DNA of 64,000 bases from an uncultured bacterium (GCA_903821905.1 CAIJMQ010000121.1:695-64694), one strand, 5' to 3'. Numbered from the stretch's first letter, positions 6,513 through 62,946 are shown. Numbers and translations are program-made. Notes: generated by a model not told the origin, from the sequence alone.

Positions 6513-6530
6513 AATATTTATATTTTAGAA

Positions 6531-28290: not shown

Positions 28291-29720
28291 TTTTCACTTA
28301 TTTTTTTCCCAGACACAACATCGGGACGGACAGCGTTAACTTTCAATTTGAACGTCACACCTTTATCAGTCCTTTGAATTTCAACATCTATACCTGAAAA
28401 AAGTGGTAAATTTCCAAAAGTCTCTTTTATTTTATCAATATCTGCAGAAGATGAAGCACTACCAGAAATTGTTATATTGTCATCTTTTAATTTGAAGGAA
28501 TCCAGTTCTATCTGTAGGTTTTTATCTATATTCTGAGATATTACCCTTAAGGCTTCAAGTGGGCTTAAAAATTCTGATTTTGACTGAATTGCACTATTTT
28601 TAAGACTGTTGATTCTGGATTTCATCTGAAGAAGCGGGGTTCTTGTATCCGTAGCTTCAGGAAAAGTTTCTCTAAAAATATTTTCTACCCGGGAACTTAG
28701 CAAGTTAAATCTTTTTTCGTAGATACTCCTTTCAAACTGAAGCCTGAAACTGAGTATAATTAATACAAGAGTTACAAGAAAAAAGCTAAATCGTATTCCT
28801 TTCCTTTCCTTTTCCTTAAGAACTGATGGATAGAAATTTATTGAATGTGGTCTTAAGCTTCCATAACTGGCATAAAGTATTTCCGGGGTAAAATTTAAAT
28901 CTCCTTGCTCTACAGGTAACGCAGTATTAAGCTCTACAGATTTTACAGTAATATTAAAATTTTTAGTCAACCAATCACATGTTTTCGTTTGTTCTTCTAG
29001 TGCCTGCAGACCAGAAAAGTAAATTTTTCCGAGCCCGCTTTCAAAAAACTCAGAACCTTGGGAAAGTAAAACAGTGCTGATTTCTCTTTTAAGTTCTGAC
29101 TTCTCACTTATAAGGTTTTTTCTCCCGATGGGAATCTCCCTCAAATCTGTAAGTTGCCTATTCTTAAGTATAGAGAAAATATATGTTGAGTTCTCCCCTA
29201 TATATAACCATAATATGTTTTCCTTTATTTGAACATGAGATGCAAAAAGGTTAACAAGAGTAAGCGGGGTAAGATAGATCTCGTTACATGCTAATTCTGC
29301 AGAATTTATCAATTCTATCTGTTCATTCAAAATATCCTCTGGGATAACGAAAGTCATAACTTCCAGATTATTATTTTTTGCATGAACAGGATAAAAAAAT
29401 ACTTTTGTATTCTCCACAGGAATAGGAATATGCGGTTCTACGGCAAATCGTATGCTCTCCCTGATTTTGGATATTCTTCTATAAGGGAATGCGATTTTCC
29501 TTATATAAACAGATGACATCGGCAAAGAACAAATAGCTTGTACTGATACTGCTTTGTTATCTGAAACAAATTTTTTAATAAATTCTACTGCCTTGTCTTT
29601 ATTCCCGGCTTCTATTTCATATTCCTTATAATCTTTTATAAAAACCTTATCTTTCCCGATATGGAAAAACAGGAGTTTTAATTTGTTCTTATCTTTTTGA
29701 AAGGAAAGTAATTTCTTCAT
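28287..29720 (-). CDS. gspL: T2SS GspL-like protein (PilM-like cytoplasmic domain + TM + PilN-like periplasmic domain) (module A)
   Basis: 477 aa. ~315-aa cytoplasmic part, a single TM (FSFFLVTLVLIILSF) and a ~140-aa periplasmic part. Its position between the K-like and M-like genes supports the call. Confidence 0.6.
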   Translation of the reverse strand: MKKLLSFQKDKNKLKLLFFHIGKDKVFIKDYKEYEIEAGNKDKAVEFIKKFVSDNKAVSVQAICSLPMSSVYIRKIAFPYRRISKIRESIRFAVEPHIPIPVENTKVFFYPVHAKNNNLEVMTFVIPEDILNEQIELINSAELACNEIYLTPLTLVNLFASHVQIKENILWLYIGENSTYIFSILKNRQLTDLREIPIGRKNLISEKSELKREISTVLLSQGSEFFESGLGKIYFSGLQALEEQTKTCDWLTKNFNITVKSVELNTALPVEQGDLNFTPEILYASYGSLRPHSINFYPSVLKEKERKGIRFSFFLVTLVLIILSFRLQFERSIYEKRFNLLSSRVENIFRETFPEATDTRTPLLQMKSRINSLKNSAIQSKSEFLSPLEALRVISQNIDKNLQIELDSFKLKDDNITISGSASSSADIDKIKETFGNLPLFSGIDVEIQRTDKGVTFKLKVNAVRPDVVSGKKISEK

Positions 29721-29763
29721 TTTGATTTGGGATACAACGGTAGAATATAGAATTCATTATTCA

Positions 29764-30822
29764 TCAGTTTTCTTTCCAAAATTTCACTTTAACATCGGAC
29801 TGGTTTCTCTCTACAATCGCGATCACTTTTTTTTCTATTTTACCAACTTTAGTTTGTGCTGTGATAGTAAAAATATTGCTTTTAACATCAAAAAGTCCTG
29901 CTCCTGATATTTTCCCAACCACATCTTCAGGGAAAAATTCTTTAAGCTCTGACAGTTCGTAAAAAGGACTACCAATTCTATATTCCATTATATCAGTAAT
30001 TATAGCATCATCTATAATTTCAACTGTTTCTGTTCCCTTATCTCCAGAAGAAGAAATACAAGCTTGAATTGTAGATTTAAGTACTTCTTTGCCGGCAGTA
30101 TTGATATTTATTTTCCCATTGGTAAAAACAGTTATAAAATTTACCAACCCCGTATCACCGTTATAATTTTCTTTAGTTATACCCTTTATCATCATGACTT
30201 CTTCAACCGTATCAAGAGGAGCGTTCTTGCAAGGATATGGAAGAGGTAATTCTGCATAATAATCACTTTCAGCTCCTTTATTTTCACCAACTGTCACAGA
30301 TGAAAGTACGGTAACTTCATCATCAGCGTCTATCCAATCTATGATAGCGGGGACAATCGAGTATTCTAAGCCGATGTTATCGCAAAGCTCAAACATCTGC
30401 TCAATCCTTAAAGTTTTTCTTTCATTTCTTGCATTAAGATAATTCAAGTTTATCTTCCCGCTTTCGTCTCCTATATTTATTTTTACAATTCCGTCATCAA
30501 AGGTCAATTCCCCCTGTTTAGCCCAATCCTCTCCTAACCCGTCAATTTTCAAATCCTCGTCATTTTTAAGCACTGCAATACCATAATTTATTCCGCCTTT
30601 AGCTAAAGCAGAAGCTTTAAGAGAATCAATGGAATTTTGCAGAAGAGAAATCTCCTGATTCATTTTGGTGGATAAATTAATCGTTAAAGCACTTAAGACA
30701 GCCAGCATAATCAATGTAAAAATAAGTACCATTCCTTTTCTGCAGGATTGGGAACCGAGAATTACAGGTTGAATATTATGATTTTTAGTATTCTGACTTC
30801 TAATTTTGGATTTGTTACTCAT
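29764..30822 (-). CDS. gspK: T2SS minor pseudopilin GspK (module A)
   Basis: 352 aa. N-terminus RKG/MVLIFTLIMLAVLSAL is a pilin-like hydrophobic helix without Glu+5, typical of GspK. Also GKINLNYLN and the C-terminal helix-hairpin-helix GKININTAGKEVLKS, and FTITAQTKVG. Confidence 0.8.
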   Translation of the reverse strand: MSNKSKIRSQNTKNHNIQPVILGSQSCRKGMVLIFTLIMLAVLSALTINLSTKMNQEISLLQNSIDSLKASALAKGGINYGIAVLKNDEDLKIDGLGEDWAKQGELTFDDGIVKINIGDESGKINLNYLNARNERKTLRIEQMFELCDNIGLEYSIVPAIIDWIDADDEVTVLSSVTVGENKGAESDYYAELPLPYPCKNAPLDTVEEVMMIKGITKENYNGDTGLVNFITVFTNGKININTAGKEVLKSTIQACISSSGDKGTETVEIIDDAIITDIMEYRIGSPFYELSELKEFFPEDVVGKISGAGLFDVKSNIFTITAQTKVGKIEKKVIAIVERNQSDVKVKFWKEN

Positions 30823-30827
30823 AGGAT

Positions 30828-31412
30828 TTATATTCCCGTTGGGATATAGATTATTGTTGTAAATTTTTCTTTGTGTAATGAAGTTAATGTAATTCTGACA
30901 ATTTGCAGCTTTTGCCCTTCCTTTATAGAATCATACCAATTGTGCCCGTCTGAATATTTGAAACTAAAATCCTTTAAATCTTCGCTCCAAACATATGATT
31001 TAAAGATTACATTTTCTTCCAACGAGAAATTTATTAGAGGTTCTTCTTCTCTTGTAAGTAAATTTTGACCCTCATCATTGGTAATAAATTTATAAGTAAT
31101 TTTCATTAAACATGAAAAAGGGAAATATATAGACCCTGCTGTGGTATAGAAACTAAAGGTTTTTTCATCTCCTTCAAATGATTTTGTATCAGAAATAGAA
31201 TAAATTGAAGATATCTCATTATCCATTCTATTAAAGATATTTCTTGCAACGTAGTAATCTTCTTCCTTTGTGTCCCATTTTTCTAATGTATTCATAGTTA
31301 AAGAGTAAGTGGAAATAATTACCAAAAATATAAGGCTTGAAATTGCTAAAGCAATGAGAACTTCAAGGAGAGTAAAGCCTGAATAAATACTTCCTTTTTT
31401 TTGTTTCTTCAT
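30828..31412 (-). CDS. gspJ: T2SS minor pseudopilin GspJ-like (module A)
   Basis: 194 aa. Prepilin motif MKKQKKGSIYSG/FTLLEVLIALAISS. Size and position fit GspJ. Confidence 0.7.
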   Translation of the reverse strand: MKKQKKGSIYSGFTLLEVLIALAISSLIFLVIISTYSLTMNTLEKWDTKEEDYYVARNIFNRMDNEISSIYSISDTKSFEGDEKTFSFYTTAGSIYFPFSCLMKITYKFITNDEGQNLLTREEEPLINFSLEENVIFKSYVWSEDLKDFSFKYSDGHNWYDSIKEGQKLQIVRITLTSLHKEKFTTIIYIPTGI

Positions 31413-31413
31413 A

Positions 31414-31818
31414 TTATTTCTTTATCCCAGCCTGCTGAATATTTGCGGATAGGCAATAAGTATTAAGGACAATTTTTGTGTTTTCTGGGCCAGAGATAAC
31501 TATCTTTACGCTTTTTAATCCATCAATTTCCGTATCTTCTACTTTTCTCATCCAAGAGAATTCAGGATAGTCTGAAAAATCACCATCTTCGTCTCCTGTA
31601 ATAAGATTTTCTTGTGTAAAAGTATTGGTGAGAATTTCGTTCCCTAAAAATATAGCAGTCGTATAATAGCTTGAATGCATCCCTTCCCTTAAGGACAAGA
31701 GCTGCGAATGAATTAAAACAACCAGTGTAATGCTTACTATGGCAAGAGAAATTAGCACTTCAAGGAGAGTAAAACCTTTATTTTTTATTAAAAACCTAAG
31801 ATTGAATTTTCGTCTCAT
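31414..31818 (-). CDS. gspI: T2SS minor pseudopilin GspI-like (module A)
   Basis: 134 aa. Prepilin motif ...LIKNKG/FTLLEVLISLAIVS. Size and position fit GspI. Confidence 0.7.
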   Translation of the reverse strand: MRRKFNLRFLIKNKGFTLLEVLISLAIVSITLVVLIHSQLLSLREGMHSSYYTTAIFLGNEILTNTFTQENLITGDEDGDFSDYPEFSWMRKVEDTEIDGLKSVKIVISGPENTKIVLNTYCLSANIQQAGIKK

Positions 31819-32386
31819 ATTCTTGCAGATATCCTAATTCAATATGACTCTGACCTGTTAAAGGATTTACAAAAAGCGTGTAGGATTTTTCTTTCTCATC
31901 AATAAAATGTATGGTAACAGGTCCAACAAAACCGGAGGGATGAAAAATTAAAGGCGTTATTCCTTCAGTAATTTTATTACCTTCAGAATTTATTATATCC
32001 TGAACCTTCAAATAAGAGCTTATTCTTCTTGTACTAAGAATATTCTCCTCTTTATCTTCCCCTTCTAGTAAAGATATAGCCTTTAACTCATTTTTATCCA
32101 AATCAAATAGTAGGAGAATTTCTTCATTTTTGACTTGTGCTAAATTATATAGATATTTTATAGTCTGGGATATATTTTCAATATCTCTTTGTCTATCTAG
32201 TTTTGATTTAGGAATTTTAAGATTCGGCAAGACAAGAGCAAGGACCATACCAATAACTAAAATAACAAGGGACAATTCAAGAAGGGTAAAACCATTATTA
32301 CCTATTAAAGATTTTTTTTTGATATTATTACTCCAGATCCCAGGAATAGATATCCGCATCGAAGCCTTCCCCGCCCTCCTTACCAT
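31796..32386 (-). CDS. gspH: T2SS minor pseudopilin GspH-like (module A)
   Basis: Prepilin motif ...SLIGNNG/FTLLELSLVILVIG. The track start at 32386 lies deep inside gspG. ATG 32359 (MRISIPGIW...) is more likely, but the start remains uncertain. Confidence 0.65.
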   Translation of the reverse strand: MVRRAGKASMRISIPGIWSNNIKKKSLIGNNGFTLLELSLVILVIGMVLALVLPNLKIPKSKLDRQRDIENISQTIKYLYNLAQVKNEEILLLFDLDKNELKAISLLEGEDKEENILSTRRISSYLKVQDIINSEGNKITEGITPLIFHPSGFVGPVTIHFIDEKEKSYTLFVNPLTGQSHIELGYLQEYETKIQS

Positions 32387-32768
32387 CTCTTCCCAGAGAT
32401 ATTATGTCATAATCATTTTGTATCCCCGGGCACAAATAAATAAAAGGATTACCCCATGCATCCAAAGGAACTTTCCCTTTTTCTAAATATCCGCCCTCAT
32501 CGTAATTTTCAGGAATTTTTCCTGTAGTTGGTTTTTCTATCAAAGCTCTCAACCCCTGTTCAGTGGAAGGATAAAAACCGCAGCTCAATTTAAAAAGCTT
32601 CAAAGCCTGCTCAAGATTACTAATTTGAATCTTTGTTGTTTTAACTTTTGCGTTCTCGAATTGGACCATAAACTTCGGAGATACAATTGCTACTAATAAA
32701 CCAATGATGACAATTACTACCATTATTTCGATGAGGGTAAACCCTGCTTGATAATTTTTTATTTTCAT
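32328..32768 (-). CDS. gspG: T2SS major pseudopilin GspG (module A)
   Basis: 146 aa. MKIKNYQAG/FTLIEIMVVIVIIGLLVAIVSPKF, then DAWGNPFIYLCPGIQNDYDIISLGRDGKEGGEGFDADIYSW, which is the classical GspG C-terminal (calcium-site) pattern. Confidence 0.9.
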   Translation of the reverse strand: MKIKNYQAGFTLIEIMVVIVIIGLLVAIVSPKFMVQFENAKVKTTKIQISNLEQALKLFKLSCGFYPSTEQGLRALIEKPTTGKIPENYDEGGYLEKGKVPLDAWGNPFIYLCPGIQNDYDIISLGRDGKEGGEGFDADIYSWDLE

Positions 32769-37056: not shown

Positions 37057-37956
37057 TTAAGAGAAAAGAGTTGGTTCAACTTCTTTCTTAAATTTTTTAA
37101 ATTCTAAGCCTTCAAATATTCTGTTCAACAAAGCCCAGTCTGGAATTGTAACCATTAATTCATCGACACTTACTTCTACAGGTACGTTTTTATCCAAAAT
37201 GAGCAGTTTTTTATTATTTAATGCGATGTTGAAATTGTTCTCTAAACTGGTTCCTACTTTTTTGTTTTTAATTCTCTCTTTAGAGGAAACCACATCTTCC
37301 AGAAAGCCAAACTCATTGAGAAGTTCCTTAGCAGTTTTTTCCCCTATTCCAGGAACTCCGGCTATATTATCTACCGAATCACCAATTAATGCAAGTAGGT
37401 CCGGAATTTTTTCCGGCAAGACACCGAATTTTTCTCTAACTTCCAAAGGCCCAAACAAATTATCTTCTTTAGAAGAGTTTAAAACATTTATTTTATCAGT
37501 AACTATCTGGAGCATGTCTTTATCTGAAGTAACAATTAGTATCTTATCAAAATCATCTCTAAACTTAGAAGCCAAGGTTGCAAGTATGTCATCGGCTTCG
37601 TACCCGTCCGCCTGCAAACATTTAAGATGAAAAGCATCCAGTATCTGGCTAATTCGTGGCAGTTGGCGATGTAAATCATCTGGCATTGGAGGACGATTTT
37701 TCTTGTAGTCGGCAAACTGATAATGTCTGAAAGTAGGAGTTTTGCTGTCAAAACAAATTGCCATATATTTTACATTCTTCTTATTAAGTAGCGACAACAG
37801 CATTTTTGTGAACCCATAAATAGCGCCTGTAGGAAAACCTTCTTTCGTAGTAAATTTAGGTAAAGCATGAAAAGCACGATAAATATAGGAACTTGCATCC
37901 AACAGATAAAGTTCTTTAATTGATTTGGTCACTATCAAACTTCTAACTTTTTGCAA
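37057..37956 (-). CDS. Stand-alone 5'-3' exonuclease / flap endonuclease (Pol I N-terminal domain only)
   Basis: 299 aa. LLDASSYIYRAFHALP, acidic-cluster motifs (EADD, DKD) and H3TH GVPGIGEKTAKELL. No 3'-5' exonuclease or polymerase domain follows; the ORF ends after ~300 aa. Confidence 0.85.
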   Translation of the reverse strand: MQKVRSLIVTKSIKELYLLDASSYIYRAFHALPKFTTKEGFPTGAIYGFTKMLLSLLNKKNVKYMAICFDSKTPTFRHYQFADYKKNRPPMPDDLHRQLPRISQILDAFHLKCLQADGYEADDILATLASKFRDDFDKILIVTSDKDMLQIVTDKINVLNSSKEDNLFGPLEVREKFGVLPEKIPDLLALIGDSVDNIAGVPGIGEKTAKELLNEFGFLEDVVSSKERIKNKKVGTSLENNFNIALNNKKLLILDKNVPVEVSVDELMVTIPDWALLNRIFEGLEFKKFKKEVEPTLFS

Positions 37957-39151
37957 AGAAGGGGTTACCTTGCGAATCTAAAACATGTACGGTTATGAAA
38001 ATCAATAGATGTTGCCTATCTACGCTGTTTATTTTTTCCTGGAAAAAAGCTTTCCCGATAATAGGTATATCACCAAGGAAAGGAACTTTAGAAATTAATT
38101 CTGTGGTTGCCTCATTCATCAATCCCCCAAGAACAATAGTAGTTCCATCATGTACATTAACATTGGTAGTAGCATCTCTACTGGTAAAAGTTGGCGGGGT
38201 AATTGTAATCGGCGCTTGACCAGTTATTTGAGATATAATGTAAGAAGTTGTTCCTGCCTGCATTTCACTTACTACAGGTTGCAAGAATAATCTGACAGAT
38301 TGTGTAGGACGAATTACAGTAGGACTTACATATAAAACTATCCCAACATCGCGGTCTATAAAAGTCCAGTCATAAGTAGTAGTTGTTGTTGCTGTTGTCG
38401 TTGTTGTGCCCTCAGTGGCTGCTGAAGAAACATCAACACTATCTACATACCGAACGGTCGTCACAAATCTTACATCTGCCGGTTCATTATTCAAAGTTGT
38501 TACTGTAGGTGCAGATAGAAATTTGGTATCTGCTCTGGTAGAAAGCATACGAAGTGTTGCTTGAAGCTGTGGATAATTAAAAGCTTGATAGGTCAGTTGT
38601 AAACCACCAGTACTACTACCAGTAGGAGCTGATACGCCCGATGTAATAGAACCACTAATTGTGTCGTAAGACCAGGCCGTACCCGCAATACCAGAATATC
38701 TCTCGTCTCTTCCAACAGGATTTGCCCAACTAAAAGATAAGGGGGTTACATCACCCCATTCCAACCCCAAATCCCTGAATGTTTTTTCTCCGACAATAAT
38801 AAATTTTGCCTCTATAGCAACTTGAGGGGGAACAGTAAGGTCTTTTAGAAATTCATCTATCTTTTTTAAATTTGATGGGGTATTCCTAACTATTAATTGA
38901 TTCTGACCTGGGAGAAGTGTAATTGAAGAACCTGGAGGTTGAGGAACAAGTTGATTAAGAACCGCTACAATATCCATGTCTGAGGTTCCAGCACCTGTTC
39001 CTGTAGCAGCTGTAGTTCCAGCAGCTGTAGTTCCAGCTGCAGCAGGTGCCGCTGCTCCTCCACCAACACCTACTTCTTGACTAAAAGTTTTTTCCATAGG
39101 AAGAATTATCAAAAAAGCTATTATAAATGTTAATGCTAACTTTCTATTCAT
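37943..39151 (-). CDS. Secretin (GspD/PilQ family) core: one N-type domain plus the secretin domain, lacking its own N0 domain
   Basis: 402 aa. Signal peptide and Gly/Ala/Thr-rich linker. N-domain end LIVRNTPSNLKKIDEFLKDLTVPPQVAIEAKFI. Secretin domain motifs LSAPTVTTLNNEPA, GIVLYVSPTV, TIVLGGLM, VPFLGDIPIIGKAFF, LLIFITVHV. Confidence 0.85.
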   Translation of the reverse strand: MNRKLALTFIIAFLIILPMEKTFSQEVGVGGGAAAPAAAGTTAAGTTAATGTGAGTSDMDIVAVLNQLVPQPPGSSITLLPGQNQLIVRNTPSNLKKIDEFLKDLTVPPQVAIEAKFIIVGEKTFRDLGLEWGDVTPLSFSWANPVGRDERYSGIAGTAWSYDTISGSITSGVSAPTGSSTGGLQLTYQAFNYPQLQATLRMLSTRADTKFLSAPTVTTLNNEPADVRFVTTVRYVDSVDVSSAATEGTTTTTATTTTTYDWTFIDRDVGIVLYVSPTVIRPTQSVRLFLQPVVSEMQAGTTSYIISQITGQAPITITPPTFTSRDATTNVNVHDGTTIVLGGLMNEATTELISKVPFLGDIPIIGKAFFQEKINSVDRQHLLIFITVHVLDSQGNPFFAKS

Positions 39152-39226
39152 TGGTTATACCCCTCTGTTTATTTTTTTCCTTTTTATTAAATTTTTTATA
39201 ATTATTTATATATTTATAACAGCAAA

Positions 39227-40861
39227 TTAATTTCCACTGCTACTGTTGCTGCTTCCTCCGGAACTATTCGATTGTCCGAATGTAATTGTGCTAAGCTGCA
39301 TTGGAGTTGGTTGAATCTGCCCGTTAATAGTTGAACCAGACTGTAAGTCAAAAATTCTAGTTTCCAATGCTTCCAATGGGACATTATCAAGCCTATCTCT
39401 TGTGGATATCCAAATAACGTTGGGGTATATTTCATAGTCTAAACCTTTTGGACGAAGTACCAAGGATAAAACATCAGAAAGTGGCATATCACGCAATGAA
39501 GCAGTAATATTATAGGTTTTCTCTGGGGTTGCAGTGGTTGTTGCTCCTACTGCTCCACCAACTACTCCAGCACCACCTCTTGCTGCACCACCACCTCCAC
39601 CAGCTCCAGGCGGTCCACCAACTCCAGCACCACCTCCTGCTGCTACACCTCCAACCCCAGCTGTAGGTGCTGCTTCAAATATAGCTTCATCAATCATCAT
39701 ATTTATACCGCTCTGTTTTGAAAGAAATAATATAACAGATCTTAAATCAGCACCAGTAAATTCCAGAGAAACCTTTTTCTCTTTGGCTTTCTTTGTGATT
39801 TCTTCTATAGCAAGAGCTTCTTCATCTTCTACTGTTTTTCCCTTCTTTTCTTCTTTTACTCCACCAACAACAGGCACATAAGCTTCATCAACTTTTAACC
39901 ATTTCTTTTCTCTTTCGGCTTTCTCTTTTTCTACATCGACTATACGTTCTGCTTTTGCCTTAGAAACTTCTGCTTGAGAAATAAGTATTTCTATACCTGG
40001 GTAATCCTCTTTTTCTTTTAAAACTTGTCCCCATATTTCAATTGCCTTATCGTATTCTTTATCTCTTAAATATTCCTTCCCTTTATTTACCATATTTTCT
40101 AGTTTCTCGGCATTATCTGTTTTCGCTCCAAACAATTTCATTTCTTCTGCAAGCTCCATATACTTTATTGCTTCTGTATCTGTGGGATTTATAGCAAGTA
40201 TTTTTTTGAGTTCATTAATAGATTCGTCATATTGTTTACTGCGATAGTATCTTTTAGCATTATCCCAATATTCTCTCATTTGTCCTGTTCTTTCTAATGT
40301 TTCTTTGATGTCTGCGTTCTTCTTGGATTTCTCCATTGCAATTTGGGTTTTTTCTATATATGCAATAGCATCTTTGTCCTTGGGATTAATTACAAGGATT
40401 TTATTAAACTCAAAAAGCGCTTCTTCATATTTCTCCTGTTCATAATAGGAGGTACCTTTATCTATATATGTTTTCTTTTTCTGTTCCTTTTCAAATTGAA
40501 TAATGTTTTGTTTCAATTCTGCTGTCTTCTTGGATTCTTCTTCACCTTTAATTATTGTATCTTCTGTCAATGCTTTCTTTTTATTGGCCATCTCATCGCT
40601 GCGAGCTATTATGCCCTTAATTTCCTCTGTCATTCCCGCAGGTGCGATTTTCAAAGCTTCTTCAAATTTTGACTTAGCTTGTTCAAATGCATTCAACTGT
40701 AAATATTCAAAACCTTCATCCAAAAGATTTTTCACCTGTTCCAGGTTTTCAGTTTCAGACTGCTGTTTTGTCTCTTCTTGTGCATAGACATAAATTGTAC
40801 CTGAAAACATCAGAAGTACAAGAAAACACCCCACAAATCTTTTATTTTTTAGGATATTCAT
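39227..40861 (-). CDS. Secreted TPR protein fused to a secretin-type N0 domain (the missing N-terminus of the downstream secretin)
   Basis: 544 aa. Signal peptide, ~6 TPR-like units and an E/K-rich segment. Then VSLEFTGADLRSVILFLSKQSGINMMIDE ...[~55-aa Gly/Ala tract]... YNITASLRDMPLSDVLSLVLRPKGLDYEIYPNVIWISTRDRL, which is the N0 pattern of GspD/PilQ. Confidence 0.7.
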   Translation of the reverse strand: MNILKNKRFVGCFLVLLMFSGTIYVYAQEETKQQSETENLEQVKNLLDEGFEYLQLNAFEQAKSKFEEALKIAPAGMTEEIKGIIARSDEMANKKKALTEDTIIKGEEESKKTAELKQNIIQFEKEQKKKTYIDKGTSYYEQEKYEEALFEFNKILVINPKDKDAIAYIEKTQIAMEKSKKNADIKETLERTGQMREYWDNAKRYYRSKQYDESINELKKILAINPTDTEAIKYMELAEEMKLFGAKTDNAEKLENMVNKGKEYLRDKEYDKAIEIWGQVLKEKEDYPGIEILISQAEVSKAKAERIVDVEKEKAEREKKWLKVDEAYVPVVGGVKEEKKGKTVEDEEALAIEEITKKAKEKKVSLEFTGADLRSVILFLSKQSGINMMIDEAIFEAAPTAGVGGVAAGGGAGVGGPPGAGGGGGAARGGAGVVGGAVGATTTATPEKTYNITASLRDMPLSDVLSLVLRPKGLDYEIYPNVIWISTRDRLDNVPLEALETRIFDLQSGSTINGQIQPTPMQLSTITFGQSNSSGGSSNSSSGN

Positions 40862-40864
40862 TCT

Positions 40865-42928
40865 TCAATTCTCCCTTTCCAAGATTTTCTCACTTTCATT
40901 TATTTTATTTTTAATTTGTTCCATTAACTGGGTTATGCTCTTTTCTAATTCGCTGTTTCCAAGTTCTTCAGTTACCTTCATTTTTGCACTATCTTCTTTT
41001 ATGTTATTACTCTCTATGAATTGATGACTTTCCTGAGATTGCAATTCAACTCTTCTTGGTAAATCATTCTTGTGAATAAAAGAGTTTACATCGCTTTCTA
41101 TAGTTTTTACTACTTGTTCCTTTATCTGGGGAGAAGCCATTCCCACCGCATCCTTGAAAATTGATTCTGCTTTATCAAATTGTCCTTCTGCTAAATATTT
41201 CATTCCATTATCTATTACTACCTTTACCTTATCAAATTGTTGTTTGTTTTTATACTCGTCTCTTGCTTTTTCCACCAAATCAAGAGAAGAAAGTGCTTCC
41301 GAATACGTTGGATTCAAATTTAATACTTCTTCAAACTTTGCTTTAGCTAAGTCAAATTTATTATCTTTCAAATACTCTTTACCTTCTGTCATCATTGTCT
41401 GCAATCTGGACTGATTAGCTTCTTCTTGGGATTTATCAAGCCGTTTTAACCATTCTTCGGCTTCAGAATAATCCGGTTTAACAGATAATGCCTTTTCAAA
41501 ATTAGTTCTTGCTTTAGCATATTGATTCTTATTAAAATTATCTACGCCGCTAGCTATATATACATCCGCTTGTTGTTGGAGCTTTCTATTATATATATTT
41601 TGTTTTGTCTTATCAATGTCATCCAGAAGAGTTTGAATCTCAGTTTGCTTATCTCCTGATGAAGCTATTTTCAACGCTTTTCTGAAAATTGCATCTGCTT
41701 TATCCAACTGTTCTGCTTCTAAATATTTTTTACCTTCAGTTATTAATCCTTCTATAACTCCTTTACTCTCATAATCCTTTTTTGCTTGTTCGGTTTCAGA
41801 TAAATACTGCAGTACAAGTTCATTCCCTGGTCTAATTTGTAACGCCTCTAAAAATTTTTTCTTAGCTTCTTCAAAATTATTTGCAGTTAGGTATTCTTTT
41901 CCCCGTTTTATTAATTCGCCCAACTTGTTCTCTTCAATCTGTTGTTTTGCTTCGGATACAATATTTTCTATTCTTCCAAGGTTTGCGCCTGCCTGATATT
42001 TTTGTTTCAATTCAGGGACAGAAGCAAGTAATGATTCTATTTCCCCCCTTCTCTTTTTCTCCTGGGGTAACAAAAGTTTAAGAGCTTCATTAAGACCAGT
42101 TTCTGCTTCTTCAAACCTGCCCATCTTGAGATTGTTTTTTCCTTCTTCTATTTTACTATCAATATTTGCAAGTAAATCTTTATCTTCTTTTGCCTGTCTT
42201 AATTTTTCAATCTTCTCTAAGTAACCCTGAGCTTTACTGTTGTCGGGTTGTAGTGTCAATACTTCCTTTAATCCTTTCTCTGCTTCATCAAATGCCTCCA
42301 TATTAATATTATTGCTTGCTTCTTCTAAAAGGTTCGATATGTGTTCAGCATTCATGCGGCGGCGTGCATTGCCTACTCGTACAAGTCCATCTTTAGCTTT
42401 ACGATTATCTGGAAAAATATCAAGCGCTTTATTAAAACTGGATTCTGCCCCATCAAGATTACTTGATTTTAAATATTCAAATCCTTGCATGATATAATTT
42501 TCAGATTCTTCTTTAGATTTTTTACCTTCATTTTTCTCTTGAAGTATTGCTATTTCTTTTAAAGATTGGGAAATTTTAATAGATATTTTCCCAAGAGAAG
42601 ATGCTTCTCGGTAATAGATTTTAGCACTATTGTTTTTATCTTCAGAAACGAGGTTCTGCGCTTTATTTCCATATGAAGAAATTTGCTCGTTTACCAAATT
42701 CAAAGTGTTTTCTAATTCTTTCTTGGCTTTATCTGGTTCCTTGTTTTTGATAAATAGATTTGCTGCTTCAATAGACTTTTTTGTTTGTTCTTCAAAATTA
42801 CGGATTAACGATATTTCTTCAGAACTAATACCGTTATCTGAATTATTACAATAAATATTTATTACTGGAAATAACCCAGACAAAACAAATAAAAATAAAA
42901 TTATCAAAAACGTTTTTTTAAAGTTCAT
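40865..42928 (-). CDS. Large TPR / coiled-coil repeat protein with an N-terminal signal or anchor
   Basis: 687 aa. Many units of the form G..YL....F..A...F..AL...P.N..A. Hydrophobic N-terminus. ATGA overlap with the upstream PilP-like gene. Confidence 0.7.
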   Translation of the reverse strand: MNFKKTFLIILFLFVLSGLFPVINIYCNNSDNGISSEEISLIRNFEEQTKKSIEAANLFIKNKEPDKAKKELENTLNLVNEQISSYGNKAQNLVSEDKNNSAKIYYREASSLGKISIKISQSLKEIAILQEKNEGKKSKEESENYIMQGFEYLKSSNLDGAESSFNKALDIFPDNRKAKDGLVRVGNARRRMNAEHISNLLEEASNNINMEAFDEAEKGLKEVLTLQPDNSKAQGYLEKIEKLRQAKEDKDLLANIDSKIEEGKNNLKMGRFEEAETGLNEALKLLLPQEKKRRGEIESLLASVPELKQKYQAGANLGRIENIVSEAKQQIEENKLGELIKRGKEYLTANNFEEAKKKFLEALQIRPGNELVLQYLSETEQAKKDYESKGVIEGLITEGKKYLEAEQLDKADAIFRKALKIASSGDKQTEIQTLLDDIDKTKQNIYNRKLQQQADVYIASGVDNFNKNQYAKARTNFEKALSVKPDYSEAEEWLKRLDKSQEEANQSRLQTMMTEGKEYLKDNKFDLAKAKFEEVLNLNPTYSEALSSLDLVEKARDEYKNKQQFDKVKVVIDNGMKYLAEGQFDKAESIFKDAVGMASPQIKEQVVKTIESDVNSFIHKNDLPRRVELQSQESHQFIESNNIKEDSAKMKVTEELGNSELEKSITQLMEQIKNKINESEKILEREN

Positions 42929-43650
42929 TCTTTTATACGTTGGGACTCGCCCCCACTCTTCAATTCGTATTTACCAGAATCTGATCTGGAGATTATAACT
43001 TTATTTTCATCAATACTCAATATCTTCCAACCTTCAACTTCATCTCCTGCGTTTGCAAAATAGGTCTTTTTTGTACTATCGTTTTGCAACATTGCTTGAA
43101 ACCCTTTCTCTATAGGCATAATACCTGTTAATTTGAAAGGCATTATTACAATCGAAGGTATCAATCGATATTGCTTCACTTCGTCACTAAGTATAACAAC
43201 ATCCCGAGTAATAGACACCACTGTAAAATTCTCCACCTTGTCGCCGACTTTAGCTTTATAAGTATTGCCTGTTTGAGAATTTCCAAAAGTAGCGGTAAGA
43301 ATACCTTCGGCATCAGAAACTACTCCAGTACATCCCAAATTCATCTGAGATGTAGCCGACCCTGATTTTTTAACATCCGTTGGAAAAAACATGTTTTTAT
43401 CAATTAATGGCTGGTATTGTGAAAAATCTTTCTTAATTAAGTAGGTACCAAAGTTCGGTTCATAAGGAGGAGGGGGATTAAGAGTTGTCCCTCCAGTTGG
43501 TTGTATTTTTATTTTGAAATCCTCAATTGCCTTGTTTCTATCTACCCCAGAAAATAAACGGACTGCTGTAATTATCAATATAACTAAAAGGAGACCAAGA
43601 ACTAATTTTTCATAATTTTCTTTAATCCACACTAATAGTTTATTAGACAT
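42925..43650 (-). CDS. Bitopic membrane protein with two PilP / GspC-HR-like beta domains
   Basis: 241 aa. N-terminal TM (LVLGLLLVILIITAV). Two similar segments, TYKAKVGDKVENFTVVSITRDVVILSDEVKQYRL and TYFANAGDEVEGWKILSIDENKVIISRSDSGKYEL, fit the PilP/GspC homology-region pattern (..vGd.v.gw.v.sI....v.l....g....l). Confidence 0.5.
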   Translation of the reverse strand: MSNKLLVWIKENYEKLVLGLLLVILIITAVRLFSGVDRNKAIEDFKIKIQPTGGTTLNPPPPYEPNFGTYLIKKDFSQYQPLIDKNMFFPTDVKKSGSATSQMNLGCTGVVSDAEGILTATFGNSQTGNTYKAKVGDKVENFTVVSITRDVVILSDEVKQYRLIPSIVIMPFKLTGIMPIEKGFQAMLQNDSTKKTYFANAGDEVEGWKILSIDENKVIISRSDSGKYELKSGGESQRIKE

Positions 43651-43695: not shown

Positions 43696-44526
43696 TCACG
43701 ATTTCCCCCATCTGATTACGGATAGTCTTAATTGTACCTGTATCTTTTTTCCCCCTACAGATCCAGTTTTAACAGTTCCCAATGTTTCCGATCTGGTTTG
43801 ATCTTGAAAACGTCCTGCCCGAGGATCCATTGAAGCATCAGATATTCCTGTCATTTCTTTGCCTTCTATTATCGACGAGAGGGAAAAGTTCTTTACTATA
43901 AAAAATCCCTGGTCGGTATTTTCCAATGTAAATAAAAGTTTTGCTAAAGAAAGGATATCGCATTTCACACTCAGGATTAATGGTATCTCCTCATACATGT
44001 CTGTTTTCGTTATTTCCCCCAACCCTATACTGTCTATTGAACTCACTCCTGTATCAATTAACAAATTAACAATCATTTCAGTAAGGTATAGATTTTTTAT
44101 TAGTTGGGGTGCTCCTTGGTCGGTCGGTAGACTATTATCTAATCCTAAACCTTCAGTAGTAATTTCGATTCCTTTTTCTTTAGCTTTAGTTCCAATCCGC
44201 TCTTTTGTATTTTTTAATTCTTCCATAAAAAACAGAGATAAATTAACACCTTCCGGAATAGATGACTCTTTTGCCACAGGTAAACTCTCTCTAATTTTTT
44301 TATATTTATCTGCTAATACAATGTTGTCTTTTTCCATGGCACTAATCAATTCGTCGGAAGGAAGATTGCCTGCGGAATAAATTTGTTGAAGCGTACTCTC
44401 TTTTTCTTTAAGCATTTTATTAGTTTCATTGTTATTTTTTAATAATAAATATCCAAACAAAGAAAATAATAAGACTATAATAAGCAAGGTTATTATATAT
44501 GGCAATCCTTGTTTTAACATAGTCAC
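43696..44526 (-). CDS. PilO / GspM-like bitopic inner-membrane protein (module B)
   Basis: 276 aa. TM (LPYIITLLIIVLLFSLFGYLLL), a coiled-coil and a periplasmic domain. Its position after the PilMN fusion (ATGA overlap) supports the call. Confidence 0.55.
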   Translation of the reverse strand: MTMLKQGLPYIITLLIIVLLFSLFGYLLLKNNNETNKMLKEKESTLQQIYSAGNLPSDELISAMEKDNIVLADKYKKIRESLPVAKESSIPEGVNLSLFFMEELKNTKERIGTKAKEKGIEITTEGLGLDNSLPTDQGAPQLIKNLYLTEMIVNLLIDTGVSSIDSIGLGEITKTDMYEEIPLILSVKCDILSLAKLLFTLENTDQGFFIVKNFSLSSIIEGKEMTGISDASMDPRAGRFQDQTRSETLGTVKTGSVGGKKIQVQLRLSVIRWGKS

Positions 44527-46394
44527 TTCCCAATAACTATTTCAAGTGTAAATTTAACTTCTTCTTCTTTATCAACTGTTGCTTCTGCTGCTGATGTAGT
44601 CCCTCTGGCTCCTTTGACCGGTCCCCTAATTCCTTCTGTTGTAGCAGATCGACCTCCCGAGCTATCTGATGTAGATACTACAGAAGTTATTCCTACAGTT
44701 TTAAATAAAGGTGAAGTCTTTAACTTGTTAATATACTCATCAACCGTAGGATAAGAAGCAGTAGTCCCACTTAAAGATATTTTATCTGTTAATAATATGT
44801 TTCCATTTCCTTCTGGTAAGGGAGTTCCCGTATTCGGATTTTTTCCTCCAGTTGGCATAGTTCTGGGGTCAATAGGAACACCCTTAGAATTTCCTTCGGT
44901 ATTCATTGCGGGCACTCTTCTATCTTCGCTTGGATTTGTTCTAACAGCACCTCTTACTCCTGTTGTTTCTCTCCCTGTTTCCAATGCTCCTGTAGTTATC
45001 TCCGTTATAGATATACTTGAAGGAGTAAGTTTAGAAATCTCAAGAAGTATTTTGGACAACTGCGATTTTTGTTTTAGAATCACTTCAATATTTTGAAATT
45101 TACTGATAATCTGTTGTCTCTCATTCTTCAATTCTTCAGCCTTAGACACATAGGGCTTGTAATTTTTAAGAATCGGCTCAATCATATCAATTTTTTCTTT
45201 TGTTAAATTATAGCTTCTTGTACCCAAAACCAATATGATCCAACCTATCAAAAATATCATAACAAAAGAAGAAATAAAGTATAACCTTTTATCCGCCAAC
45301 TGTCTCTTGCTTAGTAGTTTCGGAGGCAATAGATTTATCTCAATTGAAAAATGCTTCAATGCCCTAAGAGCTAATCCAGTAACAACACAAAAATTACTTG
45401 CACTATCGGTTAGCTTAGCAGGGTCATAAGCTATTTTATTAAACGGGTTAATTTCTTTCACTTCAACTCTGAACGAATTTTGCAGGAGGTTTATAAGATT
45501 AACATCTTGGGGAAATTCACCCGATATGTATATATATTGAAAGTGAGTTACTTTTTCTACTTGAGATAAATAGTAATTTGTAGTCCTCTTAATTTCTGCT
45601 ACTAAATCTTCCCAAACAGAAAGAATTAAAGGAGAAATATCTTTCACGCCTGCTTCCGACGTTACGTCGGAGCGGGCATACTTTTCAAGAATTTCTTCAG
45701 CTTTTTCAATATCCACTCCTTTTGACTCGGCGATTTTCTTAAGTATATTCTTCTTACCTATAGGCACTGCTCTGGTAAATGCCATTTCTCCCTTATTTTC
45801 AATAGAGACGTCAGTATAACTAAACCCGAAATTCACTAAAATTCCAACTTTTTCCTTAGGTAACAAATCATTAAAAACAAGACAGTTATGCAAAGCAAGT
45901 GATGAAGTGTCTACAACGTCAGGAATTTTATTTATGGAATTCTGCAAAACTTTGAGCAAATCTTCCACAAAACTTTGTTTTATTGCTGCCATTAGTACTA
46001 TTACGGGGCCCGGGACTTTACTAACAGGAGAAACTACTTGATAGTCCCATATAACTTCATTTAAAGAGAAAGGTACCTGCTGTTGAACTTCAAAAGATAT
46101 TACTTGTTTTAATTTGGAATAGGATACCGGGGGAAGTTTCACTTTTCTTACAAAACTTATCTGCCCACCAACACCTAAAGAAATCTCATCTTTGGCAGAA
46201 GCCAATCCTTCAAAAATTTTAATTATATTAGCAGCTAATAATTTTTTATCGTCTTCTTTATTACCTAAAGGAAGTTTTATTGACCTTGCCCCAACCAAAA
46301 CCACGCCATTAGGGCCTTGGGCAAGTTTTGCTAAATTTATGCGGTCATCCCTGATTTCTATTCCTATACCTGATTTAGCTCTTCTTTTGGGCAT
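44523..46394 (-). CDS. PilM-PilN fusion (GspL-like) assembly protein with a low-complexity periplasmic extension (module B)
   Basis: 623 aa. N-terminal actin-like PilM pattern (GIGIEIRDDRINLAKL..., SFVRKVKLPP, VDTSSLAL). TM LYFISSFVMIFLIGWIILVL. PilN-like coiled-coil and core, interrupted by Pro/Thr/Gly-rich tracts. Confidence 0.7.
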   Translation of the reverse strand: MPKRRAKSGIGIEIRDDRINLAKLAQGPNGVVLVGARSIKLPLGNKEDDKKLLAANIIKIFEGLASAKDEISLGVGGQISFVRKVKLPPVSYSKLKQVISFEVQQQVPFSLNEVIWDYQVVSPVSKVPGPVIVLMAAIKQSFVEDLLKVLQNSINKIPDVVDTSSLALHNCLVFNDLLPKEKVGILVNFGFSYTDVSIENKGEMAFTRAVPIGKKNILKKIAESKGVDIEKAEEILEKYARSDVTSEAGVKDISPLILSVWEDLVAEIKRTTNYYLSQVEKVTHFQYIYISGEFPQDVNLINLLQNSFRVEVKEINPFNKIAYDPAKLTDSASNFCVVTGLALRALKHFSIEINLLPPKLLSKRQLADKRLYFISSFVMIFLIGWIILVLGTRSYNLTKEKIDMIEPILKNYKPYVSKAEELKNERQQIISKFQNIEVILKQKSQLSKILLEISKLTPSSISITEITTGALETGRETTGVRGAVRTNPSEDRRVPAMNTEGNSKGVPIDPRTMPTGGKNPNTGTPLPEGNGNILLTDKISLSGTTASYPTVDEYINKLKTSPLFKTVGITSVVSTSDSSGGRSATTEGIRGPVKGARGTTSAAEATVDKEEEVKFTLEIVIGK

Positions 46395-46567: not shown

Positions 46568-49500
46568 TTATTCCCCAATCTCCCTAAAATACTTATAAAG
46601 ATTATCAGGAGAAACCGTCGAATACGGCGGATGATTCGGGTCAACTACAGTAAATATTTTTCGTGCAGGTGTCTGGTCAAAATTATTATGATTATTTTGT
46701 TCTCTAGCTTGCACTTCAAATATATAAGTTCCTTCTTTTAACCCTAAATAACTTGCACTATTATCTAACGGAACCCAACCAGTCCAACCGGAGTCTTTTC
46801 CTATTAAGTAATGTCTATATTCATAAGGCGGCATTCCACCTACTCCTGTAAATCTAAAAGTAACATCTCCGGATGTCTGATCTGACGGGCCATAAGTAAT
46901 AATAGTATCAGGAACTTCGGGAGATACATACCAGACCCAGATGACATCAGCGGAAACTCTTCGAGGAACAAGACTCTGGACACATGAACTTCCATTCTGG
47001 TCTTTTGCCTTCACCAAGAATCTGTACCATGTTCCCACTGTTAAATTTTCAAAAGAAGTGGAAGTTGCATCAGTCGTCCCAGGTACCAAACTCCAATCAC
47101 CAATATCATTGGAAGGGTCATAATAAGAGGGATCATAATCAGTTGTCCACACAGTTCCAGTCCAATGTTCCAACTTACTTTTGTATCTGCATTCAGTCGT
47201 ATCAATCTTAGTCCATCTAAACGAAGCATATGTGTGCGGGAACGGGTTTGACGGATATTGAGTAAGTATGACTTGTGGTACATCCGCATTAATTTGTATC
47301 GAATAGCCGTAAGTATTACTTGCCACCTGGAATTCTACAGGATGACCTGTTACTATTTCCACAGACTCTGTATCGGCATGCGAATAGCCCATATTAGGTG
47401 TAATCCATACTGTTGTTGTATCATTTAAATCCTTTTTAACTTCCAAATTTCCTTCATCTTTTATTCTAAACTGTATTAGATTTGTATCGCCGTTATCAAA
47501 TTTTACATTTGCATATAACCACACAAAAGTATTTCTTGTTTCGTCTGTCTCTTTTATCACGTTTCCTACATGATAAGGAAGAATAGTTTCATCATATAAT
47601 CGGATTTCACTACAGTCCTGCCATTGGCTCCAAACACGCGGTTCAGGAGACGTAGCAAGGCTGTATCTATACTGTGCACTGCCTTTATTAATTGATATCC
47701 CCGAACAGTCTGTGTCTTTCTCGTCAAATTCGATGGTAGCAGGATTGTGTCCTTTGTGTGATGGGTCACCGACTTCAGCGAGATTCTCATTATTCCTATC
47801 TTTCACCTTTACTCTTACAGTTACGTCTTTGGTAGGTATCCATGGTGAATCGGTTTGGACAATTTCCGTATTCCCACCATCCCATTCTACACACACTTCA
47901 TCCCAATAATAGTTGTCGGTCTGTAGATAATTGGCAATAGAATCTCCGTTATTAATTTTTATAGGGCCTTTTGTTGTTGCAGGCACATTTACCTGTTTCC
48001 CCGATTCCTGTGTTCCTGTTCCGCATACTAAATATGCGCCGGGCGGGGTTCTATCAAGTGTGAATGTTATAGGGCTGTAGCTATTCAAAGCATCCGATAT
48101 AAGTTCCGGATAAGTATCTTCGACATCATTCTTATTTTTTACCGTTAGCTGAACATAGAAAGTGTGGTCGCCTGTACTAGTATCAGTAACATCATCAAAG
48201 ATTTGTGATAGGTCAGGACAGTCATCAAGATCAAATGGCGGTGAATAATGGTCAGCGCTATAAATACTTGTTGAATCGTTTTCTTTGGTAGTGCCTGATA
48301 CCTTATCCCAATCGGTATATATCCATTGCCCCGGCATAATATCAATTCCCGGTTGAATTACTTGTATGTCAGAATCCCAAACTGGTACAAAATGATTGCC
48401 ACCCTCTTTATTAATAGTATAAATCTGAATTTGATATGACTTTAACGGCAAACCACTGCCGTCCACATCGAGATATTTCCATCTAAACTGCGGTGTAGCA
48501 TCGTGGACAGGTGCCATAGCAGGGAAAGGTTCCCAACCGTCATCTTGGTCAACAGGAATCTTGTCTTTATCAACCACATACAATTCTCTTATTTGTAAAC
48601 CCCAAGGATGTAGGCCTTGACCTAAATCAGGGCCTCTGAAAGCTGAGACATCTTTAGGAGAAGAGACACCACCTACTCTTGCCAGTTCTTTATATACTCC
48701 GGCACCGCCAGACACCACTGCTTCCAAACCGGAAGCAAGTTCAATTATAGTAGTATCTGCACTGGGGTAACTCACACTTTTTAATTCATAAACCGGTTCT
48801 ATATCAGTAGTGAAACTTCCAAAACTTACCTTTAAAGGACGATAAAGGTCGGTATCACTTGTACCAGTAGTTGGGTTTGCTAAAGTAATTTCAGTATCAC
48901 TTATCGCATAACTACCCAATACTGTGTATCCCGTATATCTATGCCCTTCTGGAGCTAATCTGACTATCTGGCTATCGCCGCTGTCAACTACCCAGCATTC
49001 GCCGGTTGATGGGTCCACCGATACTGAGGTAGGTGAAGAAAATCCGTAGATTTTAGTGTGCAGATTGCCTGAACCGCTGATATCATATCCATTAGTTATT
49101 TCTTTATCCAATCTTACTATGTATGAATCTCCGCCATCTTCGCCCTGACAGGCAACCCAGCAATCACCTGAAACAGGGTCAACAGCCACGGAAACGGGAT
49201 TATTAAAGCCTTTTATTATTTTGTGAGAACCAACATCATTGGTTATATCATATCCGGCTGTAGTTATATCTGCCTCGCCAATATTACCCTTTATCCAGAC
49301 AACAGTATCATCAGTATCAGTATTAGGGTCGTCATCAGCCACCCAACAATCACCGGAATTGGAATTAACAGATACTGATATGGGATTTAAAAATCCGTCT
49401 ATACGCGCAAGTTCTCTGCCTACGGGAATAGTAAATGATGGAGTGACAAAACTAGGCTGATTGAGAAAAATGTTATAGGCAAAAATGCTATTTGTATCGC

Positions 49501-62943: not shown

Positions 62944-62946
62944 AAT

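Follow-up and report, generated by a model that had tools for sequence, protein, structure and literature searches.

In secretins, coupling of the gate to the inner-membrane machinery has been attributed to the periplasmic rings of N-domains. In PilQ of the type IVa pilus (T4aP) and GspD of type II secretion systems (T2SS), N0 and the pore belong to one chain, together with AMIN (PilQ) or N1-N3 (GspD), and a tetratricopeptide repeat (TPR) region is absent. The architecture closest to that described below is found in the Amuc_1098 family (NF042912) of the Akkermansia muciniphila Amuc_1098-Amuc_1102 cluster (PMC5332112), in which TPR, N0, N1 with a long β1-α1 loop and secretin follow in this order within a single polypeptide of ~805 amino acids (aa). 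A secretin whose N-terminal periplasmic part and C-terminal pore part come from separate genes is known from the rhizobial-type type III secretion system (T3SS) as RhcC1/RhcC2 (HrcIIC1/HrcIIC2); a TPR protein is associated with it, and the significance of the split was stated as unknown (PMC3574062, PMC4500985). RhcC2 was described as a Tad-like secretin acquired by replacement and RhcC1 as the remnant (PMC4500985), and no intradomain break point or recurrent fission was described for this pair in either report (PMC3574062, PMC4500985). Here we describe a locus within a 64,000-nucleotide (nt) stretch of DNA from an uncultured bacterium (GCA_903821905.1, CAIJMQ010000121.1:695-64694; the whole stretch is hereafter called the window), which almost certainly encodes a genuine two-gene secretin, its parts being designated open reading frame (ORF) A and ORF B.

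The initial annotation of the window had regarded such a split organisation as an unusual rearrangement of the outer-membrane complex, yet the rhizobial case is a precedent for two-gene secretins; in our search of the literature on Omnitrophota secretins or other split secretins, the Rhc T3SS was the only case found. The likeness between the two is one of gene organisation. The Rhc genes are non-adjacent and serve a T3SS machine, whereas the genes described here are neighboured by PilM/N/O/P-like genes and pilins, and the origin of RhcC1/RhcC2 by pore replacement differs from the in-situ intradomain cut proposed for this locus. What is new is not the two-gene secretin as such, but a TPR-secretin of the Planctomycetota-Verrucomicrobiota-Chlamydiota (PVC) type that is cut within N1, a state kept throughout one clade and met again in other lineages. 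The name N1 follows the PilQ nomenclature for the N-domain beside the pore, which equals N3 in GspD.

ORF A and ORF B are aligned head to tail on the minus strand. The features of the pair are as follows.

39227..40861, minus strand: ORF A, 544 aa, with signal peptide, TPR region, N0, β1 of N1, conserved tail and S/G-rich end
40781..40861, minus strand: signal peptide of ORF A, aa 1-27, MNILKNKRFVGCFLVLLMFSGTIYVYA, cleaved before QEE; signal peptidase I (SPase-I) type, no lipobox, read from the sequence
39872..40744, minus strand: TPR/helical-repeat region of ORF A, ~aa 40-330 (Pfam TPR_2, E = 7.5e-17, four stretches)
39383..39772, minus strand: N0 (STN-like) domain of ORF A, aa 364-493, assigned by profile, AlphaFold 2 (AF2) fold and Foldseek
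39524..39670, minus strand: G/A-rich disordered insert of ~50 aa in N0 between β2 and β3, aa 398-446
39266..39382, minus strand: detached first strand of N1, ETRIFDLQ (aa 500-507, 39341..39364), and conserved tail ...GQIQPTPMQLSTITFGQ, at the C-terminus of ORF A
39152..39226, minus strand: AT-rich intergenic gap of 75 nt separating ORF A from ORF B and containing three in-frame TAA stops
39160..39166, minus strand: Shine-Dalgarno sequence AGAGGGG, 8 nt before the ATG of ORF B
37943..39151, minus strand: ORF B, 402 aa, with signal peptide, low-complexity linker, N1 without β1, and secretin core
39080..39151, minus strand: signal peptide of ORF B, aa 1-24, MNRKLALTFIIAFLIILPMEKTFS, cleaved before QE, read from the sequence
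38981..39079, minus strand: low-complexity linker of mature ORF B, rich in G/A/T, aa 25-57, poorly conserved (identity 0.25)
38825..38980, minus strand: α1-β2-β3-α2 of N1 (Secretin_N), aa 58-109, profile positions 13-67 of 69
37946..38824, minus strand: secretin pore domain, aa 110-402 (Pfam Secretin), without C-terminal S-domain

The ORF coordinates, the 75-nt gap and the presence of Sec-type signal peptides on both products (by reading of the sequence) confirmed the initial annotation, which had proposed a secretin made as two secreted polypeptides with N0 on the upstream TPR protein and a pore lacking N0 downstream. The pore was indeed located on ORF B, which gave 121 bits with Pfam Secretin (PF00263; cutoff 27.5) over residues 203-391. 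Its match to Pfam Secretin_N (29.9 bits; cutoff 28.2) covered profile positions 13-67 of 69 only, and positions 1-12, corresponding to β1, come from the C-terminus of ORF A; likewise N0 is carried by ORF A and is absent from the pore-forming polypeptide. ORF B stayed below the cutoffs of the PilQ model TIGR02515 (122.5 against 284 bits) and the GspD model TIGR02517 (145.3 against 351 bits). Neither ORF matched AMIN, and a single N-domain lies between N0 and the pore. With the NF042912 equivalog model, ORF A scored 43.5 and ORF B 135 bits, so far under the cutoff of 750 that the two are to be regarded as distant relatives of Amuc_1098 and not as members of the family.

The N0 domain of ORF A was less readily recognised. 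The profile check suggested by the initial annotation succeeded for Secretin and Secretin_N, both above cutoff, but failed for STN on ORF A alone (21.2 bits; Pfam cutoff 28.4), whose N0 matches likewise stayed under threshold, the N0 assignment being rescued by a profile of relatives and by the fold. When the N0 regions of 14 relatives were combined into a profile, it matched the N0 structure of Neisseria meningitidis PilQ (4ar0) with E = 2.2e-9, the two N0 halves in this alignment flanking a ~50-aa low-complexity insert; all 14 members of the profile set matched STN, and 10 matched the GspD N0 model. In the AlphaFold model of ORF A, residues 363-493 fold as β-α-β...β-α-β-β with a predicted local distance difference test score (pLDDT) of 85-90, and Foldseek with this model retrieved 4ar0 (probability 1.0, template modelling (TM) score 0.55). 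The N0 assignment holds by profile and by predicted fold. The TPR region, matched in four stretches, is all-helical in the same AF2 model (pLDDT 80-97), and Foldseek retrieved TPR proteins with it. The Sec-type cleavage site read between IYVYA and QEE is conserved among orthologues.

Most relatives of the window carry the insert within N0; that of P0185 is rich in Q, and L086 has almost none of it. Long low-complexity loops are tolerated within two successive periplasmic domains (N0 and N1) of these secretins.

A pilotin-like role of ORF A, another suggestion of the initial annotation, was not upheld. The TPR pilotins and accessories PilF, PilW, Tgl and TadD resemble ORF A in being secreted TPR proteins encoded beside a secretin, and a weak similarity to the PilW model was detected (TIGR02521, 40.5 bits; cutoff 154). 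These are, however, small lipoproteins without N0, whereas ORF A has TPR repeats without a lipobox, carries N0 and an N1 strand, and appears to derive from the secretin chain. A reading of ORF A as a lipoprotein was rejected also because Cys 12 lies ahead of the hydrophobic core and shows no conservation.

Comparison with orthologues, as the initial annotation had proposed, revealed the same split in ~15 pairs. Homology searches retrieved ~15 orthologues of ORF B (375-430 aa, 49-76% identity) and 13 of ORF A (497-580 aa, 47-73% identity) from independent assemblies, the named ones being Omnitrophota or 'Ratteibacteria' metagenome bins, in which the proteins are annotated as hypothetical or TPR proteins. 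The A/B gene pairs are adjacent and syntenic with the window in L003, L004/L005 and L006, within the conserved order PilM/N, Amuc_1100-like, PilP-like, TPR, A, B, 5'-3' exonuclease, coaE, rho, rpmE, prfA, prmC and gspG-K. The gap between A and B is 33-75 nt in the orthologous pairs, each with a ribosome-binding site of the GGAG type. The two genes are in the same reading frame in the window and in L003, and in different frames in L004 and L006. In L003 (3352..3388) one stop codon and 11 sense codons separate A from B, and B has a full signal peptide. The signal peptide of ORF B and its cleavage motif (KTFS followed by QE; Sec-type, SPase-I type without lipobox, by reading of the sequence) were found in all aligned split orthologues, although in P0004 and P0005 the start that was called shortens them. 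The conserved signal peptides, the ~15 orthologous pairs and their differing relative frames exclude a simple frameshift, in agreement with the initial annotation, and this comparative evidence made a direct check of sequencing reads unnecessary. A single-protein scan of the GTDB genomes with ORF B gave no matches, the patterns being too specific.

A scan of the 75-nt gap for terminator and promoter consensus sequences gave no signal above chance, so ORF A and ORF B are probably co-transcribed. A search of the window against Rfam gave no matches.

Position of the break

The initial annotation had placed the break between N0 and the N-domain, and an alignment of split with fused forms moved it downstream. 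ORF A ends with ...NVPLEALETRIFDLQ (β1), followed by the conserved tail and the S/G-rich end, and mature ORF B starts with the G/A/T-rich linker followed by α1 (DIVAVLNQLVPQPPGS). The segment ETRIFDLQ of ORF A aligns with β1 of the fused orthologues, and the linker of ORF B is the counterpart of the distal half of the disordered β1-α1 loop in the fused forms. As judged from the alignment and the structure models, the break lies within N1 (Secretin_N), in the disordered β1-α1 loop, and not at the boundary between N0 and the N-domain.

The same position was indicated by joining the two parts. When ...ETRIFDLQSGS of ORF A was placed in front of the N1 remainder of ORF B, the Secretin_N match reached profile position 1 and its score increased from 33.3 to 39.1 bits. 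Three other A/B pairs, joined likewise, showed increases from 27.1 to 34.7, from 33.5 to 36.7 and from 25.3 to 33.3 bits. Ten control prefixes (six shuffles and four other segments of ORF A) gave 32.0-33.7 bits, with extension of the match in none of the 10.

In the AlphaFold model of the fused orthologue P0135 (mean pLDDT 75), the segment equivalent to β1 is a strand (E367-372, pLDDT ~80), followed by disorder at 376-443 and then by H446-456, E464-468, E473-478, H480-494 and the barrel. This model matches PilQ 6w6m (E = 1.4e-13) and also BfpB, GspD 5w68 and InvG, the E values ranging from 1e-13 to 1e-9. When ORF A was modelled alone, N0 was well folded, residues 498-544 fell below pLDDT 50, and β1 was no longer a strand, as is expected when the partner is missing.

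Mean pairwise identity among the split orthologues was 0.76 for the β1 segment and 0.65 for the tail behind it, compared with 0.73-0.77 for N0, 0.72 for the N1 remainder, 0.68 for the secretin domain, 0.55 for the TPR region and 0.25-0.31 for the low-complexity stretches. The conservation of β1 and tail is thus comparable to that of N0 and N1, above that of the TPR region and far above that of the flanking low-complexity stretches. Conservation of β1 at the level of a domain core indicates that the strand is not vestigial. On this pattern of identity, both halves are under purifying selection.

Fused relatives and recurrence of the split

A syntenic fused orthologue, P0135, was identified in L001 and, independently assembled, in L002. 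It is one continuous chain in the order TPR, N0, ...LVEKVFDLQFG..., a Gly-rich loop of ~70 aa, ...PQDIKSILEEIIPQPPGS..., and secretin core. The TPR region of P0135 includes a near-perfect tandem repeat (LKEADEAIKKEEFEKAEEKIKEAKEIWPGH...; L001 ~7560..7660, L002 34..900), which falls at an N-run scaffold gap in L001 and so leaves both the N-terminus and the length (~1,100 aa) of P0135 uncertain.

Eighty loci of the PVC superphylum (Verrucomicrobiota, Kiritimatiellia and Auribacterota) were scanned with region-specific hidden Markov models (HMMs). Beyond the close clade of the window, every complete secretin gene among them is an ORF of ~480-1,100 aa reaching well upstream of the core, and the few shorter secretin ORFs are truncated at contig ends. 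In about one third of the 80 loci this upstream part was matched by the profiles for N0 and TPR, which derive from the window clade. An alignment-based GTDB scan gave, among the matches listed, mostly Verrucomicrobiota proteins of ~30% identity, which were used only as fused outgroups. An exhaustive phmmer search with ORF B against 1.84 billion cluster representatives gave 169 matches below 1e-30, and 171 proteins, the best 150 of this search plus those of the earlier searches, were classified. Fused forms, roughly 425-2,330 aa in length, accounted for 141 of the 171. Short matches (P0140, P0141, P0145, P0157, P0162, P0213, P0255 and others) were inspected singly; most proved to be contig-edge fragments of fused genes, with N0 or β1 still directly upstream, and were not counted as split. 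P0039, named at NCBI as an Amuc_1098 family type IV pilus outer membrane protein, has N0, β1, loop, N1 and secretin core in one chain, its N-terminus being missing.

From these comparisons, the single TPR-N0-N1-secretin chain is the normal architecture of this PVC-type (Amuc_1098-like) secretin family. Since the linkage of TPR and N0 is the family norm, the derived event would be the fission. The initial annotation had read the fusion of TPR with N0 as the reorganisation, and the 141 fused relatives do not bear this out.

Several PVC loci (L007, L008, L009 of Auribacterota, and L026) contain tandem secretin duplicates, two adjacent fused TPR-secretins of ~800-870 aa. In P0146, P0150, P0160, P0161 and P0155, the secretin core forms the C-terminus of very large proteins (1,632-2,330 aa).

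Three more split-type representatives, with 34-37% identity to ORF B, were detected among the top matches: P0151 (L086/L087/L091), P0188 (L088) and P0219 (L090). P0151 belongs to 'Candidatus Omnitrophota bacterium bin.291', where the synteny is that of the window except for a full-length polA downstream. At the P0188 locus, one A-type gene is followed by two tandem, diverged B-type secretin genes (4847..7071). The upstream proteins of L086, L088 and L090 have signal peptide, TPR and N0, and end soon after a β1-like (V/T)K(V/I)Y-x-(L/V)...tail, the strands being MVVKVYDVQDL, IVVKIYTLKYG and MVTKIYHLS; the downstream proteins begin with signal peptide, short linker and α1. In L086 and L090 the stop of A overlaps the start of B.

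A neighbour-joining tree was constructed for the N1-plus-secretin core (168 sequences, 321 columns), with a bootstrap of 200 replicates on 42 taxa. The four split groups were located at separate tips, each next to a fused sister, and monophyly of all split forms was recovered in 0 of 200 replicates. P0151 grouped with the fused P0185 in 199 of 200 replicates and P0219 with the fused P0279 in 134; the best BLAST match of the A half of L090 is the N-terminal half of P0279. The window clade was monophyletic in 139 of 200 replicates and nested in a grade of fused forms (P0135, P0017, P0139, P0142, P0140, P0144 and P0143) in 106-121. These sequences are most simply read as the outcome of three or four fissions, independent of one another, in one disordered loop within the domain. 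The break point is shared by at least three other lineages, which the secretin tree keeps apart, so that the loop looks like a permissive hot spot of fission. The split may be close to neutral and not an adaptation, and its recurrence fits a hot spot or selection alike.

Proposed assembly of the two halves and competing readings

The proposed assembly involves the genes upstream of ORF A.

40865..42928, minus strand: secreted TPR protein, 687 aa, upstream of ORF A, member of the conserved cluster in the window clade
42925..43650, minus strand: PilP/GspC-like protein, 241 aa, with two β domains resembling the homology region (HR), candidate partner of N0
43696..44526, minus strand: Amuc_1100-like protein in the PilO position, 276 aa (NCBIfam Amuc_1100_fam, 1.2e-10, under cutoff)
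44523..46394, minus strand: PilM-PilN fusion, Amuc_1101-like, 623 aa (Pfam PilM_2, 7.9e-29, and PilN, 6.6e-6; NCBIfam Amuc_1101_fam, 3.2e-48)

The neighbours are of the same kind as in the Amuc_1098 cluster, with a PilM/N-like homologue of Amuc_1101 and an Amuc_1100-like protein. The secretin thus stands beside PilM-like and Amuc_1100-like genes, as in an Amuc_1098-1102-type cluster, with family matches that are significant and under the equivalog cutoffs; Pfam Amuc_1100 matched the orthologous genes in L001 and L086. The PilP/GspC-like protein matched NCBIfam GspC_delta (1.6e-6) and pilP_fam (2.9e-4), both under cutoff, and the position of its gene is kept in L001, L086, L088 and L090. As in PilQ and GspD systems, a gene of this kind lies upstream of the secretin; PilP contacts N0 of PilQ (PMC3441751), which is the domain matched by the N0 profile of ORF A.

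We consider it probable that a PVC/Omnitrophota T4P-like (type IV pilus-like) secretin was split by fission inside N1, with the two halves rebuilding N1 in trans. The ancestral chain of signal peptide, TPR, N0, N1 and secretin would have been part of an Amuc_1098-1102-type T4P-like machine. Gene fission would have occurred within the long disordered low-complexity loop between β1 and α1 of N1, and the downstream half would have gained a ribosome-binding site, a start codon and a Sec signal peptide of its own, so that ORF A and ORF B would be exported separately. ORF B would multimerise as the outer-membrane pore, leaving a periplasmic N1 ring that is incomplete, with a two-stranded sheet and two helices in each subunit. 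Since the cut falls inside a small ring-building domain, the halves probably must rejoin in the periplasm. Insertion of β1 and the conserved tail of ORF A into each ORF B subunit would complete N1 by β-strand complementation, and a ring of N0 domains and TPR arms would thereby be tethered beneath the pore. The N0 domains would then dock the PilP-like protein, whose gene lies two genes upstream, in the manner of PilQ-PilP and GspD-GspC, and through it the pore would be linked to the inner-membrane platform of PilM/N-like and Amuc_1100-like (PilM/N/O-like) proteins. Taken by itself, trans-complementation of N1 by ORF A and ORF B is likely to about the same degree as the explanation as a whole; the 1:1 stoichiometry and the contact between N0 and the PilP-like protein at this locus are likewise inferred.

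Several points weigh against this explanation. The contact between A and B is deduced, and the pairing of β1 with N1 in the fused model was read from the secondary structure and confidence of a single chain, not from contacts. The gain of 3-8 bits on adding β1 is modest in absolute terms, and the PilP-like assignment of 42925..43650 falls under the curated cutoffs. The tree was built by neighbour-joining from 321 columns, with moderate support for monophyly of the window clade (139/200) and for its nesting (106-121/200), and the polarity, fission rather than re-fusion, depends on parsimony. The public runs gave only low-depth Logan contigs, none of which crosses 39147..39224 and which are uninformative on the gap, and a search of public runs for the locus found no RNA runs.

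The strongest competitor, unlikely as it appears to us, is that the two proteins work independently, ORF B being a self-sufficient minimal secretin that tolerates the loss of β1, and ORF A a TPR accessory, free in the periplasm or pilotin-like, that binds the PilP-like protein through N0, has no covalent-like coupling to the pore and keeps β1 as a vestige. ORF B does keep the full secretin domain and most of N1, TPR accessory proteins are usually separate, and secretins without N0 in the pore chain exist, such as the Tad-like RhcC2 (PMC4500985). A vestige should decay, yet β1 and tail retain domain-core identity (0.76 and 0.65) across the 13 orthologues, and in the three other independently split lineages β1 is also kept at the extreme C-terminus of the upstream protein. 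The N-domain fold is β-α-β-β-α, and without its first strand the three-stranded sheet would be left with an unsatisfied edge and part of the core exposed. Reversed polarity is a good deal less probable. In that case the two-gene form would be ancestral in Omnitrophota, and P0135, P0185 and P0279 would be secondary fusions in which the old signal peptide had decayed into the loop; the loop of the fused forms does sit exactly at the position of the ORF B signal peptide and linker, with a similar G/A-rich composition, and the nesting of the window clade in fused forms has a bootstrap of only 53-60%. An ancient split with re-fusions is nevertheless less parsimonious than fission, because fused forms (141/171) dominate across the tree, in Verrucomicrobiota, Kiritimatiellia and Auribacterota as elsewhere, and the split forms are four separate tips beside fused sisters, requiring ~4 fissions against many more fusions.

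An artefact or recent pseudogene, with one gene cut by a nonsense or frameshift error, is very improbable. The shared frame of ORF A and ORF B in the window, the single stop parting the L003 pair and the lack of coverage of the gap by available public contigs can be cited in its favour, but the window gap holds three stops, the signal peptide and ribosome-binding site of ORF B are conserved, and the split recurs in ~15 independent assemblies, in different frames in L004 and L006, with purifying selection on both halves. The shared frame in the window and L003 would also allow programmed stop readthrough or frameshifting to restore a single fused chain. To this we attach hardly any weight, given the three TAA stops in the window, the different frames in L004 and L006, the overlapping stop and start in L086 and L090, and the internal signal peptide that the product would hold.

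The split might itself be functional and not neutral. The N1 ring could serve as a reversible coupling joint, a preassembled pore of ORF B being engaged by the N0/TPR adaptor ORF A and the platform only on strand insertion. We regard this as a speculative proposal and rather doubtful. If it were true, assembly checkpoints would be possible, or the use of one adaptor for alternative pores (compare L088, with one A-type and two B-type genes), and the repeated origin of the same cut would reflect selection for modularity.

A natural, conserved and recurrent cut in the pore-side N-domain shows where the chain breaks without loss of the machine. If trans-complementation is true, the pair offers a ready-made split system in which the roles of the pore and of the N0/TPR adaptor in assembly, gating and coupling can be separated. 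The finding carries structural information and can be tested in a heterologous host; its reach is limited, since the organisms are uncultivated and two-gene secretins have precedent. As the halves are annotated in these Omnitrophota-type genomes as 'hypothetical protein' and 'tetratricopeptide repeat protein', automated surveys would overlook the half with N0 or count the secretin as a truncated one.

Gene neighbourhood

The 687-aa TPR protein (40865..42928), encoded between the PilP-like gene and ORF A, is an extra member in the window clade and is absent from L001 (fused), L086 and L088. It could be either a duplicate or a second-fission product of a longer ancestral TPR arm.

Upstream of PilM/N, an ORF of 3,569 aa (46568..57277, minus strand) carries NHL repeats, DUF2341, two LamG-like domains, BNR and Y_Y_Y. 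It is preceded by a GspK-like protein of 1,301 aa with a lamin-tail domain (57310..61215, minus strand), and four pilin-like genes (61212..63591) lie ahead of both. The 3,569-aa and 1,301-aa proteins may be giant pilus-associated or tip proteins; smaller counterparts occupy the same position in L001.

The downstream neighbour of ORF B (37057..37956, minus strand) is a stand-alone 5'-3' exonuclease of 299 aa, overlapping ORF B by 14 nt. A stand-alone exonuclease is present at this position also in L001, L003 and L004, and L086, a more distant Omnitrophota locus, has a full-length PolA of 893 aa (7412..10093). A second, T2SS-like set of GspG, H, I, J, K, L and M (27772..32768, minus strand) follows after the housekeeping block exo, coaE, rho, prfA and prmC, and this odd interleaving of the set with housekeeping genes is conserved among relatives. 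The window contains only one secretin pair, and neither a GspE/PilB ATPase gene nor a GspF/PilC platform gene was found in it.

A possible further split gene was noted at 22995..27418 (minus strand), where a Propeptide_C25 ORF (248 aa, 26672..27418) and a Peptidase_C25 ORF (1,226 aa, 22995..26675) are separate genes with an overlap of 4 nt. The propeptide of gingipain-type proteases normally forms one chain with the peptidase.

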